The notes: a model not told the origin generated them from the sequence alone. Counted from the first letter of the stretch, positions 1 through 40,711 are shown. The stretch is DNA of 60,029 nucleotides from Dehalococcoidia bacterium (GCA_030740155.1 JASLXV010000062.1:1-60029), one strand, 5' to 3'. Made by a program: numbers and translations.

Positions 1-65
1 TGCCTTCCAGCCTCTATTCGAGATAGCTGCGACTCGGGAAGGCAGCGATGTGGTCCTGATAAACG

Positions 66-28802: not shown

Positions 28803-29912
28803 TCACCGGGAGATTGAGCTGGAACCGGGTCTAAAACCGGCCTCCGGCAGCACCTTGAGGCTCATGTCCATGCTCCTGGCCAGCTCCGGGTCCACCGCGA
28901 AACAGATGATGCTGTTCGTGCGCAGGGTGGTGCCTTTCACCTTGATCGTCAGCATTTTGCTCATGGCCTTGTTCTCCGCACCGTCGGCGAAGCTCCCAAC
29001 TTGCAAACTCACGTGATTGCCGGCCATTTCTTCCAGGTGGCCCAAAACCGACGGATCCACGTGTGTGGCATCCAGGGATATGATTACCGCCGTCTTCGGC
29101 GAGCAAAAGAATCTGCATTCGGTGAAGAAGCTCGCGCTCGGGACGGTCCCCGCTCCGTTGACCAGGCCGGTGAGGCCATCGAGGACAATGATATCCACGT
29201 TGGCGAAAACAGTTTCCATGTGCTTTCTCAGCCGGTCCAGCGCCGACGCGGCCTCTCCATCATCCCCGGCGAACTCATCCAGTGAATAGATCGAGAACTC
29301 GCCATCTTCCATGCTGGGGGAGATGTCCAGGCCCAGCGTACCCATCCGGTCCGTCAGCTCGCCGGAGGTAACCCCCTGGACATAGTAGGCCACCCGCTGC
29401 TCCACTAGCAGAGCCCCGTAAGCCAAGTGCTGGCAGATGACACTCTTGCCACTGCCGGCTGCGCCATCCACCTGGGTCAGATTGCCCATGGTGATTCCGC
29501 CCATCATCGCCCGGTCGATAAGGTCGTTGCCGGTAGGAATAGCGGCGCCCGAGCGGGTCAACGCGATCCGGATGCGGTCTTCCAGCCGGCCCGGGGGCCA
29601 GGGCTTGATTACGTAGTCCAGGGCGCCGCCCCTGACGGCGCGCTCCGCGTCTTGGACCCCATCCTCCTCGTTGAGGATAATCACCGGAATTGACCGGGTT
29701 TCCTGGTCGGCTTTCAGCCCCTGAAGCACCTCCAGGCCGTTGATGTTCGGCGCCATGATGGTCAGCACGACCAGGTTCGGCTTTTCCCGCGCGACCAGAT
29801 CGTGAGCGGCGGCCCCATCGCAAGTTCCGAGCACCTGGTGGCCCTCTCCGACGAGGACCAGATCGAGCACATCCCGGCCTCGGTCATCGTCAACCACAAC
29901 AATTTTGGCCAT
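28803..29912 (-). CDS. Pseudo-receiver domain fused to KaiC/ArlH(FlaH)-like ATPase
   Basis: REC fold (VVVDDD, GALDYVIKP) plus IPTGNDLID..GG, Walker A GAAGSGKS, IIVLDGLT. Confidence 0.8.
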   Translation of the reverse strand: MAKIVVVDDDRGRDVLDLVLVGEGHQVLGTCDGAAAHDLVAREKPNLVVLTIMAPNINGLEVLQGLKADQETRSIPVIILNEEDGVQDAERAVRGGALDYVIKPWPPGRLEDRIRIALTRSGAAIPTGNDLIDRAMMGGITMGNLTQVDGAAGSGKSVICQHLAYGALLVEQRVAYYVQGVTSGELTDRMGTLGLDISPSMEDGEFSIYSLDEFAGDDGEAASALDRLRKHMETVFANVDIIVLDGLTGLVNGAGTVPSASFFTECRFFCSPKTAVIISLDATHVDPSVLGHLEEMAGNHVSLQVGSFADGAENKAMSKMLTIKVKGTTLRTNSIICFAVDPELARSMDMSLKVLPEAGFRPGSSSISR

Positions 29913-30693: not shown

Positions 30694-31154
30694 AGCGCGG
30701 CCGTCCGGTCCCAACGCCATCCAAGCAGATCACCGGGACCGGGTCCACATTTTGGAGCCTCGCGGCGCCCACGTTCAGCGGGGCATCGATAGAAGCCCGG
30801 AGATGACGCGCGATAAGGCTGAGCACCATATTCTTGGTCTCAGCCTTATTCTTACGCCAAAGACCCGCCGAGGGAACTCAGCATTGGCGCCTGAGTTTCA
30901 AGCTCGCTTGGGGCGCCTGTACCTGTCTTCCCCGGTAGCCGGCGCTTCCAATACCCTTCGTGGTGAGCTTGTCGAACCACCAGCCCCCGCTCTTCGAAGG
31001 TGCTTTGCCTTAAGACCGTCACTCCAAGGAGCGAAGCAGCACCGTCATTCCGAGGAGCGAAGCGACGAGGAATCTGCTGTGGGGCTCGTCCTTGGCAGCC
31101 CGGACCCACCACCCCAGACCCCTCGCTTCACTCGGGGTGACATATTCCGGATCC

Positions 31155-32231
31155 CTACTGCCACTGCCAGTCGATCTTCCTGGTTACCACTGCGCCGTGG
31201 GCGCTGTCGATAAACAGGCAGTTGGCGCCGGGTGAAGGCCAGCCGCCGCTGACCAGGATGCTGAGGAACTCGGGGGACGTTATCGCCGGGATCAGGGCGT
31301 CGTCGTTATCGAAGTCCACCAGGTCCGCCCACCAGTAGGATTTGGTGGCGCTCCCGCCGGTCTTTTTCAAATCGCGGACTGTGCGCTGGGCCTTCTCGAT
31401 CATGGCGTCCCGCACTTGCTTCTTGCTCCAGCCGGCGTCGGCGAACACCTGGGACGCCAGCGGGTTCATCACCGACAGTTTGTGCGTATCCTCATGCATG
31501 TGGCCCAGGCGGTCGAAGCCACGGGCGAACCTGGTGACCAGGTCGTCCAACGATTGCTGCAGACCGGCGCCGGTACCGATCTGCTCGTGTCTTCCGGCGG
31601 GGAACATGGTGATGGCGCTATCCTCCGGCTTAAGGCCGGCCTCGCTGACGTGGAACTGCTCCCACGGGTTGCCGTCATCGGGTGGCCGTTCCGCCAGGAG
31701 GAAGCAATACTTCCCCAGATGGCCGAAGGTGGCGTGGGAGAGGCGCTCGGCCCGGCCCAAGCCGCAGTTCCACAGGATCAGGGCGATGGCCCTGCCGATG
31801 GTGCCGTTGACCCGAGTGCCGTCGCCGGAGGCCGCTCCCCGGTCGTAGTTGAGGCCCAAATGCTTGACGACCGGGCCGGAGATTATGGCGCAGGGCACGG
31901 CCCCCGCGGCACTGGTCTGAACCTGGCTCAGTTGAAACTCGTCCGCCAGCATCGCCTGGACCGCCGCGATCACAATGGGCACGTACTCCGGCTTGCACCC
32001 CGCCATGGCGCAGTTGAGGGCGACCTCCTCCATGGTGGCCACGCCCTCGCCCGGGGGGATGACGCCCACAACTTCCGAGGAGTCGCGTCCCACATAGTTG
32101 AGGATTTCGCCAACCCGCTTCTCTGTTGGCGGGAGCACCGGCAGCCCGTCGCTCCACCCCTCCTGGTACGCCAGGTTGGCGAAATCATCGATATCCATTC
32201 CCTGGAAGGTTTTCGTGGTTAGCTTTGCCAT
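31155..32231 (-). CDS. UGSC-partner domain protein, type B copy 2
   Basis: GWSDGLPVLPPT, NCAMAGC, NGTIGRA; homologous to the C-terminal part of 37814-39481. Confidence 0.85.
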   Translation of the reverse strand: MAKLTTKTFQGMDIDDFANLAYQEGWSDGLPVLPPTEKRVGEILNYVGRDSSEVVGVIPPGEGVATMEEVALNCAMAGCKPEYVPIVIAAVQAMLADEFQLSQVQTSAAGAVPCAIISGPVVKHLGLNYDRGAASGDGTRVNGTIGRAIALILWNCGLGRAERLSHATFGHLGKYCFLLAERPPDDGNPWEQFHVSEAGLKPEDSAITMFPAGRHEQIGTGAGLQQSLDDLVTRFARGFDRLGHMHEDTHKLSVMNPLASQVFADAGWSKKQVRDAMIEKAQRTVRDLKKTGGSATKSYWWADLVDFDNDDALIPAITSPEFLSILVSGGWPSPGANCLFIDSAHGAVVTRKIDWQWQ

Positions 32232-32236
32232 GATAC

Positions 32237-33283
32237 CTACTCCCACTTCCATTCAATCTTGCGAGTCGCCTGTTGGCCGTGGGCGGTCACCAGGCGGAGA
32301 CAGTAGCCGGGGGACGCCGACCAGCCGCCCGTGACCAGGACGTGGAGTTCCTCCCGGACCGGCCTAGGCCCCGTTGCGCTGGGCATCGTAAGCTGGCCGG
32401 TATAGTCCTTCCGTTCGTGGAGGGTCTCCGTGGTGACGGCTCGGAACCAGGGGTTGGCCCGCTCCATGATCGCGTCGCGGAAGTCCTGCTTGCTCCATCC
32501 AGCTTCGGCGAAGGCGTTGGCGATGTGGGGGTTCAGCACCAACATCTTCTGGAAGCTCCCCAGGGTGATGGAGTCGGCCAGGACGTCCACCTTGTCGGCC
32601 AGCGAGTTGCCGCCGACCCCGGCGCTGATTTGGTCCTGGGTGCGGGAGGGATACATGGTGACGGCGCTGTCTTCGGGGTCGAGGTCCGCCGCCGTGACGT
32701 GAAACTGCTCCCACGGGTTGCCGTCGTCCGGGGGCCGCTCCGCCATCACGTAGGAGATGCGCCCGATATGGCCGAAGGTCGAAGCTGACAGCGCACCGGG
32801 ACGGGACTGGGCGATATTCCACAGCACCAGCCGGATGGCCCGGCCAATCGACGCGTTCACCCGGTTGCCGCTTCCGGCCACGGCGCCTTCACCGTAGTGC
32901 ATACCAAGCTCCTTGACCACCGGGCCGGAGATGATGGCGGCGGGTGCGGGGCCGCCCGTGGTGCTATTGACCCGCATGAGTTCGAACTCTTCCGCCAGCA
33001 TCGCCTGGATCGCCGTGATCACCACCGGGACGTACTCCGGCTTGCACCCGGCCATGGCGCAATTGATGGCGATCTTTTCGATGGTGGCGATGCCCTCGGC
33101 GGGGGAGAGGACCCCGACCACCTCCCCGGGGTCTTTCCCCAGATAGTCGATCATCGCGGTCACCGCCTTCTCGGTGGGAGGGAACACCGGCAAGCCGTCG
33201 GTCCACCCTTTGCTGTAGGCCAGATCGGTGAACTCGTCGACGTCCATCGGTTCATAGGTATTCGACACGAGAGTCGCGGCCAT
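32237..33283 (-). CDS. UGSC-partner domain protein, type A copy 2
   Basis: GWTDGLPVFPPT, EKIAINCAMAGC, NASIGRA. Confidence 0.85.
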   Translation of the reverse strand: MAATLVSNTYEPMDVDEFTDLAYSKGWTDGLPVFPPTEKAVTAMIDYLGKDPGEVVGVLSPAEGIATIEKIAINCAMAGCKPEYVPVVITAIQAMLAEEFELMRVNSTTGGPAPAAIISGPVVKELGMHYGEGAVAGSGNRVNASIGRAIRLVLWNIAQSRPGALSASTFGHIGRISYVMAERPPDDGNPWEQFHVTAADLDPEDSAVTMYPSRTQDQISAGVGGNSLADKVDVLADSITLGSFQKMLVLNPHIANAFAEAGWSKQDFRDAIMERANPWFRAVTTETLHERKDYTGQLTMPSATGPRPVREELHVLVTGGWSASPGYCLRLVTAHGQQATRKIEWKWE

Positions 33284-33762
33284 GGGTCCCCTCCTTGTGG
33301 AGCCTATCCGGTAACTTTATTGCCGTGGTTCGACAAGCTCACCACGAGCGGAAAATATCAATCTCAACACGAGCCCGCCAACACCGTTTGCACCGGGCCG
33401 GTTGAAAGTGGCGGCGAGAGTGCTGCCGGGCAAAGAGCATCATCTCCGCGGGATTGGGCGGCATCCCCTTGCCAAGATCGTCATCCCGGCGAAGGCCGGA
33501 ATCCAGAGAAGCGTTGGCTGGATCCCGGCCTTCGCCGGGATGACGGACTGGGTATCAAGCCGATCGAGGTTACGGGCCGGTTATCAATCCATCGGTGACG
33601 GGCCGTGTATCAAGCCAAATGCAACCCAGTAGGCTAGTACTCAGTCAACCTATTGCTGATGGTTGTCATTCAGAGCGAAGCGAAGAATCTCGTTGTTACG
33701 CTGAGATTCTTGTCGCTGCGCTCTTTAGAATGACATCCTGCCAAAACGAGGTTGACTGACCG

Positions 33763-34449
33763 CTAGTAGGGCCTCGGAATCTTCCCAACTTCCTTCAGTT
33801 TTTCGAGGGTGAAGGCGCCGGATTGGCACACTTCGATTGTCTTACGCTCGAAATCGGCTATGGTGCTCACCATGTCCGGAATCTTGTCGGCTATCTCGAA
33901 CGGAATTGAAGTAACCCCATGCTTGTCACCGAGCAGCAGGTCTCCGGTGGAAACCGTGAGTCCGCCGACCGTGACGGGGATGCCGATATCCACCAGGTGC
34001 ACGTAGGCGTGAGACACTGAAACATCTTTGGCGAAGAACTGAAAACCCAGGTCGTGCACTTCGTCCAAGTCTCGCACCGTGCCGTCGGTGGCGACGCACA
34101 CCGCTCCCAGCGCCTTGTGAATATTGCCCTGGACTTCGCCCCAAAAGGCGCCAAGGGGAGGATTGTCGATATCGTGGAGAACGATGAACCTTGGCTCGGG
34201 GACCGACGCTATCAGGTCGAACCAATCGTTTCTGGAAACGTTGTGCCCTTCCTGCCGGACCGCGCTGATAACGCCGGTAACCGCATACCCGATCACCGGG
34301 GGTAGATCGCTGAAGATAGACCTGATCTCCGGCAGCATGAATCCATGGTTCTTGGGCCGGACATTGAACCCTTCGATGGCGTTACAAATGCTTGGGCCAT
34401 CGATCACGGACAACGCTTTGAGAGTGGCCTGACTAATGGTCTGATACAT
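33763..34449 (-). CDS. RraA/HMG-aldolase family protein
   Basis: GYAVT, AFWGEV, TDGTVRD, GDLLLGDKHGV. Confidence 0.9.
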   Translation of the reverse strand: MYQTISQATLKALSVIDGPSICNAIEGFNVRPKNHGFMLPEIRSIFSDLPPVIGYAVTGVISAVRQEGHNVSRNDWFDLIASVPEPRFIVLHDIDNPPLGAFWGEVQGNIHKALGAVCVATDGTVRDLDEVHDLGFQFFAKDVSVSHAYVHLVDIGIPVTVGGLTVSTGDLLLGDKHGVTSIPFEIADKIPDMVSTIADFERKTIEVCQSGAFTLEKLKEVGKIPRPY

Positions 34450-34493
34450 GAATCATCTCCCTTAAACCGGTTTCACCATTGATAATGATCTGG

Positions 34494-35570
34494 TTACCGC
34501 CACTGCCAGTCGATCTTACGGGTTACCATCGCGCCATGGGCGCTGGTTATGAAGAGGCAGTTGCTGCTGGGGGACGGCCATCCGCCGCTTACCAGGATGC
34601 GAAGGTGCTCCGGGGTTGGCACGGCGGGCACCAGGGCATCGTCGTCATCGAGGTCCACCAGGCCGGCCCACCAGTAGGACGTGGCGCCGCTTCCGCCGGT
34701 CTGTTTCAAGTCGCGGACCGAGCGCCGGGCCTGCTCGATCATGGCGTCCCGCAGCTGGGTCTTGCTCCAGCCGGCCTCGGCGAACAGTTGGGCCGCCAGA
34801 GGGTTCACGGCGAACAGCTTTTGGGAGGCCGTATGCATGTGTCCCAAACGGTCGAAGCCCCGGGCGAAAGCACCCACCACCTCATCCAGTGACTGGTCGA
34901 GACCGGAGTAGGTGGGGAACTGCTCGTGGCTTCCGCCGGGGAACATGGTGATGGCGCTGTCTTCGGGATCGAGGTCCGCCGCCGTGACGTGAAACTGCTC
35001 CCAGGGGTTGCCGTCGTCCGGCGGGCGTTCCGCCAGCAGATAGCAATACTTCCCCAGGTGGCCGAAGGTGGCGTGGGACAGCCGCCCGCCCCGCGCCCGG
35101 CCGTGGTTCCACAGGACCAGCGCGATGGCCCGGCCGATGGTGCCGTTGGCCCGGCTGCCGTCCCCCGAGACCGCTCCCCGGTCGTAGTTGAAACCAAGTT
35201 GCTTGACCACGGGACCGGATATGATGGCGCAGGGTACCGCGCCCACCGCGCTGGTCTGGACCTGGGCCAAGTCGAACTCGTCCGCGAGCATCGCCTGGAT
35301 CGCCGCGATCACGATGGGCACGTACTCCGGCTTGCACCCCGCCATGGCGCAGTTGATGGCGACCCCTTCAATCGTGGCCACGCCCTCACCCGGAGGAATG
35401 ACGCCCACAATCTCCGAAGGGTCCCGTTCCAGATAGGCGAGGATGGCGCCTACCCGCTGCTCCGTGGGGGGGAGTACCGGCAGCCCGTCGCTCCAGCCCT
35501 CCCGAAAGGCCAGGTTGGTGAACTCGTCGATGTCCATCCCCTGGAAGGTCTTGGTGGTTAGCTTTGCCAT
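34494..35570 (-). CDS. UGSC-partner domain protein, type B copy 1
   Basis: Close paralogue of 31155-32231 (both 358 aa). Confidence 0.85.
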   Translation of the reverse strand: MAKLTTKTFQGMDIDEFTNLAFREGWSDGLPVLPPTEQRVGAILAYLERDPSEIVGVIPPGEGVATIEGVAINCAMAGCKPEYVPIVIAAIQAMLADEFDLAQVQTSAVGAVPCAIISGPVVKQLGFNYDRGAVSGDGSRANGTIGRAIALVLWNHGRARGGRLSHATFGHLGKYCYLLAERPPDDGNPWEQFHVTAADLDPEDSAITMFPGGSHEQFPTYSGLDQSLDEVVGAFARGFDRLGHMHTASQKLFAVNPLAAQLFAEAGWSKTQLRDAMIEQARRSVRDLKQTGGSGATSYWWAGLVDLDDDDALVPAVPTPEHLRILVSGGWPSPSSNCLFITSAHGAMVTRKIDWQWR

Positions 35571-35577
35571 GGAACCG

Positions 35578-36624
35578 TTACTCCCAAGTCCAATCGATTT
35601 TGCGGGTTGCCTGCTGGCCGTGGGAGGAGGTCAATCGGAGACAGTATCCGGGGGCGGCCGACCAGCCTCCCGTGACCAGAATATGAAGCTCTTCCCTAAC
35701 CGTCCTCGGTCCGGCCGCGCTGGGCAGCGTTAGCTGGCCCTGATAGTCACTCCGCTCGTGGACGGCTTCCGTGGTGACGTGGCTGCGCCAGGGGACGGCA
35801 CGGGCCATGATGGCGTCTCTGAAGTCCTTCTTGGTCCAGCCGGCGCCGGCGAAGGCGTTGGCCACGTGGGGGTTCACCACCAGCATCTTCTGGGAGGTCC
35901 CCAGGGTGATGGAGTCGGCCAGAACGGCAATCTTGTTTTCCAACGTGTTGTTCCCCACCCCATCGCTGATCTGGTCCTGGGTACGGGAGGGAAACATGGT
36001 CACGGCGCTATCCTCGGTACCGAGGTCCACCGCCGTGACGTGGAACTGCTCCCACGGGTTGCCGTCGTCCGGGGGCCGCTCCGCCATCACGTACGAGTAA
36101 CGCCCGATGTGCCCGAAAGTTGATGCCGACAGGGCGCCGGGACGAGACTGGGCGATATTCCACAACACGAGCCGGATGGCCCGACCGATGGTGCCGTTCA
36201 CCCGGCTGCCGCTCCCGCCAACGGTGCCCTCACCGTAGTCGAAGCCCAGCCGTTTGACCACCGGGCCGGAAATGACGGCGGCAGGAGCGGGACCGCCCGT
36301 GGTGCTGTTGACCCGCAGCAGCTCGAACTCGTCCGCCAGCATGGCCTGGATCGCGGTGATCACCACCGGGACGTACTCCGGTTTGCACCCCGCCATGGCG
36401 CAGTTGATGGCGATCTTCTCGATGGTGGCTATGCCCTCCGCGGGAGGGAGTACGCCGATCACCTTACCAGGGCCTATGCCCAGGTAGTCGAGGATCGCGG
36501 TCACCGCTTTCTCGGTGGGAGGAAGCACCGGCAGCCCATCGGTCCACCCCTCCCGGTAGGCCAACTCCGTGAACTCGTCCACGTCCATCGGCTCGTAAGT
36601 TTTCGACACCAGCGTCGGCGCCAT
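35578..36624 (-). CDS. UGSC-partner domain protein, type A copy 1
   Basis: Close paralogue of 32237-33283 (both 348 aa); AAGGAGG RBS before ATG 36624. Confidence 0.85.
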   Translation of the reverse strand: MAPTLVSKTYEPMDVDEFTELAYREGWTDGLPVLPPTEKAVTAILDYLGIGPGKVIGVLPPAEGIATIEKIAINCAMAGCKPEYVPVVITAIQAMLADEFELLRVNSTTGGPAPAAVISGPVVKRLGFDYGEGTVGGSGSRVNGTIGRAIRLVLWNIAQSRPGALSASTFGHIGRYSYVMAERPPDDGNPWEQFHVTAVDLGTEDSAVTMFPSRTQDQISDGVGNNTLENKIAVLADSITLGTSQKMLVVNPHVANAFAGAGWTKKDFRDAIMARAVPWRSHVTTEAVHERSDYQGQLTLPSAAGPRTVREELHILVTGGWSAAPGYCLRLTSSHGQQATRKIDWTWE

Positions 36625-37103
36625 GGGATCCCTCCTTAGATGTGCCAGCCCGGTAAACAGTGACACGCAGGCTAAGGCTAATGCGTTGGGCCGCCTGCAC
36701 CTAAATCCCCCTGTATCCCCCTTTAATAAAGGGGGACTTGAAGGAGCTATTTTTCGCGGGGTTGGCCATCCAGTTATGGTTCCGCGAATCAGTCACGTTG
36801 GACTGATCACTGGAGCCCGCGTTGCCGGCAATCTGTTTCAGCGGCCTGCCGGGTTCATGTATAACGCCAAACCGCTCTCCGCCCGGTTTCGGGGCCGGAG
36901 AGCGGCGGTTCATCGCGTCATTTGGCCTGGGCCGGGTTCCGGAGTGCGGCTAGCACCACTTCGATATAGTTGGTGGATGAAAGTGACCCCTGATCTAACC
37001 TTTCCCCTTCGCCACGGAGAAGGAACAGTCCACTCCCCCTTACGCCCGGGCAGATAAGGGAGGGGGTTCTCGGGCAGACCGTCAAGACTAGCTGGGCACG
37101 CTC

Positions 37104-37640
37104 CTACTCACCCACGATGTGGTGTTCGCAGGTGCCGGCTACCTCGCCGGCCTTCGACGAAATCTCATCCGCCGTATCGAATCCAGGCAGGTCCTGCTTG
37201 TAGCAGATCACGGGCAGGTCGGGCTCCCCCAGTTGTCGCAGCGTCAGCTTGGCCAGCGCCTCGAACTTGTCGTGCACCATTCCGACCGCCGGGATGCCCA
37301 GCTTTCGCATGTTGACCGTGTCACGCACGGTTCCCTGGGTGCAGGACCCTCAAGCGCCCACCCCGATGATGGCATAGTCGACCTTGGCGGCCAACTCCTC
37401 CATGTCCTCCATCGGCGCGGGGTTCCAGGTGCTGTGCTTGTACAGCTTGTGGGTCTCCTTCGGTTCGTACATGGCCTGGAGGGTCTCTTCGAAGACCGGC
37501 CAGAATTTCTCGGTCGAACCGTGGCCGCTATAGACCAACCCCATCCGTCCCGCTCGCAGGGTTTCAACGGGCCGAAGCTGCTTTCCTTCCGTGGTCGCGG
37601 TATCCGCCACCGGGTCATAGACCAACAATCTGTCACCCAT
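37104..37640 (-). CDS. UGSC-family selenoprotein, short form (Sec97, TGA 37350-37352)
   Basis: ...IIGVGA-TGA-GSCTQGTVRD...GIPAV continues in frame; hairpin at 37315-37331. Confidence 0.88.
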
Positions 37641-37813
37641 AAATGCCTCCTCGATAACCAGCGATGGCTCGCCCAGCATATGCGCCAACCTTAACGGGCC
37701 CGGAGAGCTTATTATCCGCACTGAGCGTATTGTACGTCAAGAGAGGTTGCTCCCCGGTGGTTTGGCGATGGCCGGCGTTCTCCCCTGAGGTATGCTTTCT
37801 CTTCGCTCCCGCC

Positions 37814-39481
37814 CTAACGAGCCCGGTACTGGTCTACGTTCACCGACTCGGGGCGCACCGGCATGCTGGGTATGATGATCGGCTTCGCCCGGTCGGCTCC
37901 GACGCAGATGAGCCGGTAACGGTCGGCGCTCTCCCGCACCGGCATCCAGATGTCGTGCAGCTCCTTTTCGCTCAGCTTCAGCAGCCACCGCCAGTGGGCG
38001 GGAATCGTCTCCGGCTGGAGCGGGTAATAGTGGACCATCTTGCCCAGGCTGAACTGGGCGTGCATGTGGATGAACTCCTTCGCCCCCTTCTTGGTGAAGC
38101 CTGCCTCGCCGGCCGGGCGGGCGATGTCCGGTGGAACCAGCACTATCGTTTCCATGGCGCTGCCTTTGGCGGTCCGGCCCGGCCGGACCAGGTCCCACTG
38201 GCTGAATATGGAGTTGTAGGCGATGGTCTTCAGCAGGCCCTCGGCGGTATTGTTGCCCTGGTCGGCCACGTCTACTTCTCCCTTGGTGGCCATGACAGTT
38301 ACAACGCTGTCCCCGGCCTTGTAGCCTTGTTCCACGTGGAAGGGCTCCCACGGGCTGGCGTCCTCGTTCTCGGCAATGCAGACGCTGAACTTCCTGACGG
38401 AGCCGATGGTGTCCATGTCCATCTCGCCCGGATACCAATAGCCGATGTTCTTGAGGCACAGGGTATAGGCCCGGCCGACGACCAGGTTGGCCCGGTTTTG
38501 CCGGCCCGGACCCATGCATGCTCCCTTGGAGTTAATGTCCAGCTCTTTGGCGATGGGTCCGTTGACCAGCAGCATGGAGGCGTGGGAGCTGGTGGACATC
38601 AGGAACCCTTTCACCCGGTCCGGGTCCATCTGGGAGACCGCCTTGAGGGCCCCGATTATCAATGGCATGTGCTCCGGCGACGCGCCGGCCATGACCGAGT
38701 TGATCGCGATCTTCTCCACCGTGGCCAGGCCGTAGCCAGGGGGCAGGTCGCAAACCACGTGATCGGGAGGAAGGCAGGTGCCTTTGAGCATCTTTTCCAC
38801 CGCGTCCTGCGTGGCCGGCAGGAGAGGAAAGCCGTCGCCCCAGTCCCGGTTCAGGAACTCCCGGTTCATCACCTGAAAGGCATCGGCATAGTTGCTGCCC
38901 TCGAACCGCTCCACCTGGGTGGGTTGCAGCTTGGCGTTCGCAACCGGGGCTTCAACCTCCGCCGTCAGCTCGCCGACCAGCGTCTCGAAGGCCGCCTCCG
39001 TCTGCTGGACCGCCCTCTCCCGGTCCAAGTTCCGGTACAGCCAGGGTACGACCACGTAGCGTACGCCCGGCATTCCGAAGGCCCGAGCGCTGGCGATGGC
39101 GTCATGCTCGAAGCGTCCGGACACCAGCAGAACGGCGGGCGTGCCCTTCTTCTCGATCTCCACCATCTCGTGGACCATCCACGAGGTGCAAGACCCTCAA
39201 TCGGCGGTGGCGCCGATCACGACGTCGGATTCGTCGGTGGCCTTCTCCAGTACCGCCGTCGGCGCGGGCAGCCCACCGAGGTAGAAATTTGTCTCCACGC
39301 TGGGAGTGTGTTGCTTCAGCATTCCCTCAATGGAGCGCAGGGCCACATCACCATTGGCGGTGCCGCTCCATAGCAGCCCGACCCTCTTCCCTTCCAGGGT
39401 GGACGGCCTCTTGTTGACCGCCCTAGCGTCGAGGACGCCCCTTTGCTGTGCTACCGGGTCCAAGACTTCTAGGATCTCCAT
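37814..39481 (-). CDS. UGSC-family selenoprotein, long form (Sec95, TGA 39197-39199)
   Basis: ...IGATAD-TGA-GSCTSWMVH...GTPAV, fused to a WGDGFPLLP/EKIAIN domain; hairpin at 39167-39185. Confidence 0.88.
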
Positions 39482-39577: not shown

Positions 39578-40711
39578 CTAGTCGATCACGAACAACCGCT
39601 CTGTGTCGAACTTGCCCGTGAGAAGTTCGGGCTCTCCTCCAGTTACAAGGATCATATCCTGGAGATGCCAGTAGCTTGAAAAGGGCTCAACGGCCACCAC
39701 CATCCCTTCCTCGATTTGCGTGTGGCAGTCCGCCACCAGCAACGGTTGCTGCTGGTGGAACCAGGGGCCCACGCTGTGGCCCACCATGCTTCCAGCGCCG
39801 CTGAACCCGTACTCCTTGAGTTTTTGATCCGCGAAAGAGAACAGGTCGTTGGCTCGTACTCCCGGCCGGCAGCGGTCGATGGTCATCAGGTGTACTTCAC
39901 GGTACTTCCGGTACATCTCGACTTGCTCTTCCGATGGCGGGCCGACGACGAAGACCCGGGATTGGTGGCCGGGATAGCCCTGCAAGTACGAGACGTAGTC
40001 GGTGCGCACAATATCGCCCTTTTCCAGAAGCGTATCACCTTCACCCAAGTAGCGCACGTTGTTCCGGCTGGTGTTCAGGAGCCCGTGAACGATTTCCGCG
40101 CCTCTTGCCATGCAGGCTTTCACCAATTGGGCGTGTACTTCTCGCAGGGTATATCCCTCGCCAACGTTGGAAAAAACCTCCACGTAGGCATCGTCCTGGA
40201 TGTCGGCGGCCCGCCTCAGCAGGTCGACCTCTCCGGGGGTCTTCACCCAGCGGACGGCATCCATCAACTCGGTGCAATCGAACATCTCGACGTCGGGGAG
40301 AAGCCGGTGAAACTCCTCCCAGTGCGATGCGCTCAGGTAGGTCTTCTCGAACCCTATCTTGGATTTGGTCAATCCCAGTCGCTCGATAACCTCGGCCGTT
40401 CTGGCAAACGCGGTCGTCCGGTAGTCATCGTACCCTTCGATATTCGGAATCCAGGAATCCCTCCAGGCTCTGGCTATGCCAAGATTATTGAGCACCATGA
40501 CCGGTTCGCCCTGCCGGGGCCATACCACGTATATCTCTCTCGGTGAGTCGGGAAAATCGACGTGCCGTCCTTGGGAGCCTGGGAAAGCCACACCGGAGAG
40601 GTAAGTAATGTTGGTGCCGGAGCGCGCGACAATCGCCGAACAACCGTGCCGGTCCATGAAGTCGTTCAGTCTCGGCACGTTTGCGATGATCTTCCGTTTC
40701 CCGTCTGACAT
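39578..40711 (-). CDS. M24 (Xaa-Pro peptidase/creatinase-fold) family protein
   Basis: NITYLSG, RWVKTPGE, GHSVG, VAVEP. Confidence 0.88.
   Translation of the reverse strand: MSDGKRKIIANVPRLNDFMDRHGCSAIVARSGTNITYLSGVAFPGSQGRHVDFPDSPREIYVVWPRQGEPVMVLNNLGIARAWRDSWIPNIEGYDDYRTTAFARTAEVIERLGLTKSKIGFEKTYLSASHWEEFHRLLPDVEMFDCTELMDAVRWVKTPGEVDLLRRAADIQDDAYVEVFSNVGEGYTLREVHAQLVKACMARGAEIVHGLLNTSRNNVRYLGEGDTLLEKGDIVRTDYVSYLQGYPGHQSRVFVVGPPSEEQVEMYRKYREVHLMTIDRCRPGVRANDLFSFADQKLKEYGFSGAGSMVGHSVGPWFHQQQPLLVADCHTQIEEGMVVAVEPFSSYWHLQDMILVTGGEPELLTGKFDTERLFVID

Follow-up and report, generated by a model that had tools for sequence, protein, structure and literature searches.

A 60,029-nucleotide (nt) stretch of DNA from a Dehalococcoidia bacterium (GCA_030740155.1 JASLXV010000062.1:1-60029), here called the window, carries two genes for predicted selenoproteins of the UGSC family. 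In the longer product a selenocysteine (Sec)-bearing UGSC domain is fused to a partner domain of about 350 residues, and four stand-alone copies of that partner (A1, A2, B1 and B2) are found close to the gene for the shorter product. Profile comparisons predict a remote homology between the UGSC domain and the Sec-bearing domain of GrdB and PrdB, and the partner is near-obligate for the UGSC domain. These features suggest that the UGSC domain and its partner form a two-part reductase, which would break a carbon-heteroatom bond in a small organic substrate by PrdB-type reductive chemistry, a proposal that we consider to have an even chance of being correct. The UGSC family and one fusion with the partner have been in print since 2007-2008 as predictions.

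Both Sec genes match Pfam PF24696 (UGSC), at 113.9 and 103.7 bits against a gathering score of 25, and both fall below the cut-off of NCBIfam NF041046 (94 and 67.6 bits, cut-off 125). By sequence, the long and short proteins are divergent subfamilies. The UGSC profile aligned by hhalign with the Sec tails of the seven GrdB and PrdB proteins of the same genome at 95.3% (E 2e-8, 104 columns), with U-x-x-C in register. When the UGSC hidden Markov model (HMM) was compared with approximately 2900 non-self proteins, these seven ranked at the top (E 0.004-0.19), and in the reverse search with the Grd HMM the UGSC proteins ranked first (best E 1e-5). The UxxC likeness to GrdB and PrdB that a preliminary description of the window had pointed out is therefore real at the profile level. 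UxxC is found in 27 of the 28 UGSC copies of the genome, and the GrdB-like form UxxCxxC in four. No Pfam match to PF07355 (GRDB) was found in the window Sec genes, and the seven PF07355 matches of the genome lie elsewhere. The six GrdB-like genes and the one PrdB-like gene, all with U, are located on contigs C17, C54, C59, C69, C79 and C91 (loci L029-L034), where five adjoin GrdE-like genes and one GrdA gene is present; several of the GrdB copies have UxxT/S in place of UxxC.

An AlphaFold model of the 555-aa fusion (149-row alignment, C for U) has a predicted local distance difference test score (pLDDT) of 95.3 and a predicted template modelling score (pTM) of 0.94, and the relative arrangement of its two domains is therefore predicted with confidence. 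The structural matches listed for residues 27-178 of the Sec-domain model are flavodoxin/Rossmann-like folds (Z 9-12). A thioredoxin fold is not among them, which by itself does not exclude one, and no thioredoxin Pfam match was found. As modelled, the UGSC Sec domain appears to fold flavodoxin-like rather than thioredoxin-like. The available text of two publications (PMC2398784 and PMC13188914) assumes a thioredoxin-like fold for UGSC, and the latter, a 2026 review, still ranks it, in that text, as uncharacterised among thioredoxin-like proteins. Sequence searches of solved structures returned nothing for the fusion and a best E of 0.13 for the Sec-domain profile.

The association with the partner is seen throughout the genome. 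Iterated HMM searches found 28 UGSC domains (29 matches in the Pfam search) and 35 partner matches, which are counted as 33 genes because two fusions look frameshifted; in both (G000:C20:50235 and C61:9244) the apparent frameshift is inside the partner domain and may reflect either decay or assembly error. Of the modules, 11 are fused and 17 stand-alone, next to 22 stand-alone partners. For 27 of the 28 modules the partner is either part of the same protein or encoded on the same strand at most 813 nt away, and for the remaining one it is 2.4 kb away. Twenty outside loci were hand-chosen, mainly from few-copy genomes (18 from a phylum-wide survey and two from the family/order sample); the partner was inside the fetched region in all 20, and adjoining or fused in 19.

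Modules and partners were also compared by quick trees without bootstrap, from which the two frameshifted partners were left out and for which, as for the Mantel tests, three automatic pairings had been corrected by hand. The division between fused and split forms is mirrored in both trees, with a Shimodaira-Hasegawa-like approximate likelihood-ratio test (SH-aLRT) value of 100 in each. The short window UGSC protein clusters with modules on contigs C54, C50 and C68 (SH-aLRT 99), and A1, A2, B1 and B2 cluster with exactly the partners of those modules (SH-aLRT 98). For 11 of the 15 split pairs the nearest neighbours agree between the trees. The closest relatives outside the genome fit the same picture: deltaproteobacterial modules 41% identical to the short UGSC protein adjoin partners that are 46-47% identical to A/B. 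Over 24 pairs the Mantel r was 0.41 (0/5000), and over the 17 left after removal of near-duplicates 0.37 (3/5000). The mirrored clades indicate that the short UGSC protein is the likely cognate of the four local partners, so that one Sec module likely serves four A/B paralogues. Across the genome, pairing appears to be mostly one to one and cognate rather than freely interchangeable. The interchangeable partners of the preliminary description thus survive at most locally, for the short UGSC protein and its four A/B partners, and the window offers a natural test of modularity in which a single Sec module can be set against four intact partners.

The partner corresponds to the Unknown_1 domain of Zhang & Gladyshev 2008, as the motifs A-x-N-x-x-M-A-G-C and N-G-P are common to both when the supplementary alignment is compared by eye with the A2 consensus. 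The family includes 2507 representatives at E <= 1e-10. Residues 20-210 are conserved (0.59) and residues 211-345 variable (0.34), as would be anticipated if a constant catalytic scaffold were joined to a variable part that sets specificity. Six of 150 listed representatives are tandem partner-partner fusions (P0156, P0174, P0192, P0202, P0247 and P0258), which hints at a possible pairing of A with B. No Pfam or NCBIfam family was matched by the four stand-alone partners, and a search of solved structures with the partner profile gave a best E of 1.0. In the fold search the best VIA match was capsid-like (Z 5.2 over 85 residues) and indicates no clear fold, from which neither difference nor novelty follows, and in the ESM Atlas the only matches were unnamed clusters or clusters bearing UGSC or redoxin, with none usable once these were skipped. 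The model of the partner accordingly has no clear solved relative. A lead to the alpha domain of class I fumarate hydratase (Foldseek E 1.4e-4 with a template modelling score of 0.27-0.32; VIA Z 3.6-3.7, 184-190 aligned residues, root-mean-square deviation 5.2-5.5), a structural match under the noise level of the tool, was not upheld by profiles, the hhalign comparison with 27 class I alpha sequences giving <=2%. Only the cysteines at B1 positions 80 and 179 are conserved at >=70% in the partner family, and there is no three-cysteine cluster motif.

Both in-frame UGA codons behave as Sec codons in the sequence comparisons, and the two genes are classed as predicted selenoproteins. The ORFs reported earlier as interrupted by TGA within U-G-S-C-T give products of 555 aa and 178 aa when TGA is read as U. 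The host genome (3.6 Mb, 94% complete, 7.65% contamination) contains selA, selB and selD, all above cut-off, as well as tRNA-Sec; selD itself has an in-frame TGA. All 28 UGSC domains have exactly one in-frame TGA, at the same position, and homologues in relatives across the phylum likewise do not end there. In a blind genome-wide scan for read-through based on coding statistics, both window genes pass, as two of 39 hits. An independent DNA run (X14), which is not marked as a possible source, spans both TGA codons with no difference listed at either, and a contig from the RNA library of a variant strain has 13 differences across 37193-37512 and an unchanged TGA. For the predicted Sec insertion sequence (SECIS), a fixed stem of positions +12..18 and +24..30 retains 160 of 196 pairs in the family, compared with 105.9 +/- 6.3 in synonymous recodings (0/5000), and one pair at a third codon position covaries, being C-G in 15 copies and G-C in 11. 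The hairpin of the long gene keeps all seven family pairs, has G second in the loop and has a fold z of -2.53, with 4/200 shuffles equally stable.

Genes in other genomes point to thioredoxin as a likely source of electrons. Four of the 20 outside loci, from three genera, have a TrxB-like gene with CxxC as an immediate neighbour, and so does a deltaproteobacterial locus (L045). In four further outside loci the partner has a redoxin-like extension, three of these with CxxC, and the same redoxin-partner fusion occurs in ESM Atlas clusters. The selenium-dependent reductase suggested earlier agrees with this linkage. Nine of the 20 outside loci (L085-L094, from other Chloroflexota) belong to a separate fused subfamily with the motif V-G-H-U-S-T-C-A-P, often the only copy in its genome and in three cases with a TrxB-like gene directly downstream; this subfamily is a good entry for genetics.

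The proposed reaction follows that put forward for D-proline reductase in the available part of PMC3091704, in which the PrdB selenolate attacks the alpha-carbon, the C-N bond is cleaved, and a cysteine resolves the intermediate before re-reduction by exchange. In the UGSC system the pyruvoyl subunit GrdE/PrdA would be replaced by the partner, which would hold and activate the substrate. Attack of the selenolate on carbon would then displace an N, S or O leaving group. The cysteine three residues beyond U would convert the selenoether to a selenenyl-sulfide with release of the reduced product, and recharging would proceed from NADPH through thioredoxin reductase and a thioredoxin or redoxin, as the gene linkage suggests. 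The window fusion would be a self-contained single enzyme, and the short UGSC protein would likely work with the four A/B paralogues, which may act as A-B dimers. With its 28 copies the genome would likely cover a broader range of substrates, and specificity would be set by the C-terminal third of the partner, which is variable.

A number of results weigh against this proposal, or against the Sec assignment and the pairing on which it builds. The substrate-activation step is a guess because the partner is not GrdE-like and has no known activating group: likeness to GrdE was rejected (hhalign 0.1% against five GrdE-like proteins, no PF09338 match on the partners), and none to the N-terminal part of GrdB was found by hhalign. 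No TrxB-like gene is adjacent to the UGSC loci of this genome, in which three are located elsewhere, and of the five linked TrxB-like proteins only one scores above the cut-off of TIGR01292. Among the neighbours scanned (122 proteins of this genome and, for the outside loci, 60 of approximately 210) no shared gene was constant and no substrate was indicated. One UGSC copy in the genome lacks the resolving cysteine, and four full-length fusions from other organisms (P0160, P0181, P0235 and P0238) have neither U/C nor the resolving cysteine and are possible non-redox members. For the SECIS, the stem register was picked after the sequences had been viewed, and the generic rule discriminates poorly (16/28, against 151 and 145 of 400 controls). 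The hairpin of the short gene has two of the seven family-register pairs; a shifted 6-bp hairpin, in a register recognised by eye for its clade, fits the loop rule and is no stabler than shuffles (z 0.21). The Mantel correlation is not significant within split pairs (r 0.17, 477/5000) or within fused pairs (r 0.26, 672/5000), and the similarity profile of the short module correlates with those of A/B weakly and not significantly (r 0.19-0.21).

Other explanations share part of this evidence. The same thioredoxin-fed two-part selenoenzyme could reduce oxidised heteroatoms (sulfoxides, N-oxides or hydroperoxides) by attack on O, S or N, like methionine sulfoxide reductases and peroxidases. UxxC and the linkage to TrxB and redoxins fit this equally well, the genome encodes 34 luciferase-like monooxygenases, several near UGSC loci, that could produce such oxides, and peroxidase activity of GrdB is named in the title of a reference within the available text of PMC3091704. 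However, the homologues GrdB and PrdB mainly attack carbon, and a dedicated 350-aa partner with 28 divergent copies (median identity 27-33%) would exceed the needs of general repair, and we regard this alternative as unlikely. We judge non-redox covalent catalysis to be similarly improbable. Here the partner would hold an unsaturated acid or thioester to which Sec adds in a reversible manner, giving an isomerase, hydro-lyase or C-S lyase, and thioredoxin would only protect the selenol. The sole whole-core structural lead for the partner is the fumarate hydratase alpha domain, genes for MmgE/PrpD and CoA-transferase III recur nearby, and the resolving cysteine is missing in some homologues; yet that structural match is under the noise level, neither the profile comparison nor cysteine conservation bears it out, and UxxC is kept in all but one of the copies.

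The Sec module might instead be a free carrier shared by all partners of the genome, or a module that binds metal, sulfur or selenium, and not the catalytic nucleophile. The excess of stand-alone partners (22) over stand-alone modules (17), the three partners with no same-strand module beside them and the non-significant Mantel result within split pairs would be in keeping with this, but the mirrored and supported clades, the nearest-neighbour agreement in split pairs and the 11 fusions argue against it, and two of the module-less partners are near-twins of other partners; this reading seems very improbable. Finally, UGA could be a true stop or an assembly error, leaving separate or broken genes. 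Database products do mostly start after UGA, 116 of 120 close homologues containing only the post-motif part, but in view of the 28/28 copies, the phylum-wide relatives, the Sec machinery, the covarying hairpin, the independent DNA run and the confident full-length fold, this explanation can practically be dismissed.

The window genes form an eight-gene array, all on the minus strand, in the order M24, UGSC-partner fusion, short UGSC, B1, A1, RraA-like, B2 and A2. The four stand-alone partners, the RraA-like gene in their midst and the M24 gene upstream were described earlier on the same strand, in an arrangement that is borne out here; features are listed in the table below.

Features of the UGSC array; positions are counted from the first nucleotide of the window
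Feature	Position	Strand	Remarks
M24-fold (creatinase/prolidase-like) gene	39578..40711	-	PF00557, PF01321; upstream of fusion; neighbour, candidate member only
Long UGSC protein, 555 aa	37814..39481	-	Sec domain ~1-175 (U95, UxxC) and partner ('Unknown_1', DGxP) domain ~190-555
In-frame TGA of long gene, predicted Sec95	39197..39199	-	context A-D-U-G-S-C-T
Predicted SECIS hairpin of long gene	39167..39185	-	+12 to +30 after UGA; 7/7 family-register pairs
Stand-alone UGSC protein, 178 aa	37104..37640	-	U97, UxxC; Pfam match; likely A/B cognate by tree
In-frame TGA of short gene, predicted Sec97	37350..37352	-	context G-A-U-G-S-C-T
Candidate SECIS hairpin of short gene	37315..37331	-	+19 to +35; 6-bp stem, loop position 2 = G; shifted register
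Partner domain B1, 348 aa	35578..36624	-	AlphaFold pLDDT 90.1, pTM 0.91
Partner domain A1, 358 aa	34494..35570	-	start 7 nt past B1 stop
RraA-like/aldolase gene	33763..34449	-	PF03737; between the two B-A pairs; neighbour, candidate member only
Partner domain B2, 348 aa	32237..33283	-	82% identity to B1
Partner domain A2, 358 aa	31155..32231	-	78% identity to A1; start 5 nt past B2 stop

The ORF track calls A2 as 365 aa, from a start 21 nt earlier. A and B partners share 49-53% identity, and each of the four is 32-37% identical to the C-terminal domain of the window fusion. From the sequence, the B-A pair is duplicated in tandem with a spacing of 3339-3341 nt. None of the four appears to be a decaying copy, because the near-invariant residues of the partner family are retained in all and the ratio of nonsynonymous to synonymous substitution (dN/dS), among themselves and against the congener, is 0.1-0.23. 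The intergenic gaps at 30960-31150, 33330-33720 and 36700-36740, beside the B-A pairs, contain dispersed repeats at which contig depth rises 10- to 30-fold and many loose ends occur; such repeats could have helped the tandem duplication. A scan for promoters and terminators was at chance level (2 against 2.1 and 5 against 8.4). In RNA libraries (five runs, four studies), contigs at a depth of 2-7 span parts of the two Sec genes and of some partners, coverage that does not by itself demonstrate transcription.

Neighbours of UGSC loci are varied catabolic genes, including CoA-transferases III, MmgE/PrpD, hydantoinases, monooxygenases, dehydrogenases and solute-binding proteins. The RraA family was not matched among the 122 and 60 scanned neighbours, and in this genome one further UGSC locus (L004) has an M24 gene nearby. 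Neither the RraA-like gene nor the M24 gene recurs as a neighbour of the system, and both are unproven members because the neighbours are diverse with no constant member. Only one other genome among 150 of the family has close A/B orthologues (E <= 1e-80), which are located on short contigs. Elsewhere in the window (28803-29912, minus strand) a gene combines a response-regulator domain with a FlaH/ArlH-like ATPase, and the same bacterial genome has a gene for an archaeal-type flagellin at L020:8008-8610.

The UGSC system is not special to this locus, which is one of approximately two dozen in the genome. All 24 same-family genomes sampled have UGSC, with 2-24 copies each, as do nine of 16 other genomes of the order and 40 of 301 across the phylum. 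Contamination is not the cause of the 28 copies because they are divergent (median identities of 27% and 33%) and the congener genome has 24. The window stretch was found in seawater metagenomes, and the genome is inferred to be SAR202-like. A broader reading, which we hold tentatively and with less than even confidence, is that UGSC and its partner constitute a third, unrecognised Grd/Prd-type branch in which a new-fold protein replaces pyruvoyl activation, multiplied by marine Dehalococcoidia as a substrate-diversified toolkit for reductive C-N, C-S or C-O cleavage in persistent dissolved organic matter. If this is true, a selenoprotein family that is among the most abundant in the ocean would gain a function, and the view of these bacteria as oxidative would be extended by a reductive arm.

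Approximately 37 selenoprotein genes of the genome are family-checked (28 UGSC, seven Grd/PrdB, GrdA and SelD), and about seven motif-only candidates, with family labels that we presume, bring the total to approximately 44. At these numbers the genome would be among the most selenium-rich described. Published records, in the available text of the sources, are 39, 57 and 63 (PMC9312934, PMC13188914). A separate gene at G000:C25:26308 (plus strand), just upstream of L006:728-1066, has E-F-Y-D-U-Y-T at an in-frame TGA with coding-like sequence on both sides and a 5-bp hairpin after the TGA, and adjoins a ChsH2-like OB-fold gene. The motif is presumably the catalytic-cysteine motif of thiolase-like proteins, and the product may be a little-known selenoprotein.

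Among known systems, the closest is the UGSC/Unknown_1 fusion printed as a single example by Zhang & Gladyshev 2008 (PMC2398784, Fig. S1A), which has the same Sec domain, motif and partner motifs. The present system differs in its predicted flavodoxin-like fold, its near-obligate partner and its 28 copies in one genome. In the UGSC selenoprotein literature as available, no earlier mention was found of the homology to GrdB/PrdB, of the partner as obligate, of the link to thioredoxin or of the expansion, though other papers or closed journals could hold one, and the titles and opening abstract lines of the literature on SAR202 and selenocysteine include none on a UGSC system. The partner has a weak whole-core structural resemblance, at noise-level scores, to the alpha domain of class I fumarate hydratase/tartrate dehydratase (PF05681), from which it differs in lacking profile similarity and the conserved cluster cysteines. 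With GrdB (PF07355 plus Sec tail) and PrdB, the window system shares a remotely homologous Sec-bearing domain, UxxC(xxC) in register and a linkage to the thioredoxin system. However, it has no GrdB N-terminal domain, no pyruvoyl-type GrdE/PrdA and no adjacent GrdA/C/D, and has an unrelated partner instead; the genome's own six GrdB genes, one PrdB-like gene and GrdA gene stand separate from the UGSC genes. The paralogue expansions of catabolic genes in SAR202 (FMNOs and enolases, in the available text of PMC6946804) are alike in being ancient, divergent, many-copy families among catabolic genes of marine Dehalococcoidia, with 28-29 UGSC copies here. UGSC differs as a selenoprotein family missed by COG-based counts, and the available main text of that study contains neither 'seleno' nor 'UGSC'; as UGSC genes are routinely truncated at UGA in databases, the expansion would be invisible to standard counts. 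With GrdB/PrdB as the predicted homologue, a partner that is near-obligate, a likely source of electrons and a 555-aa single-chain form modelled with confidence, the function of UGSC becomes a question that can be assayed at the bench.

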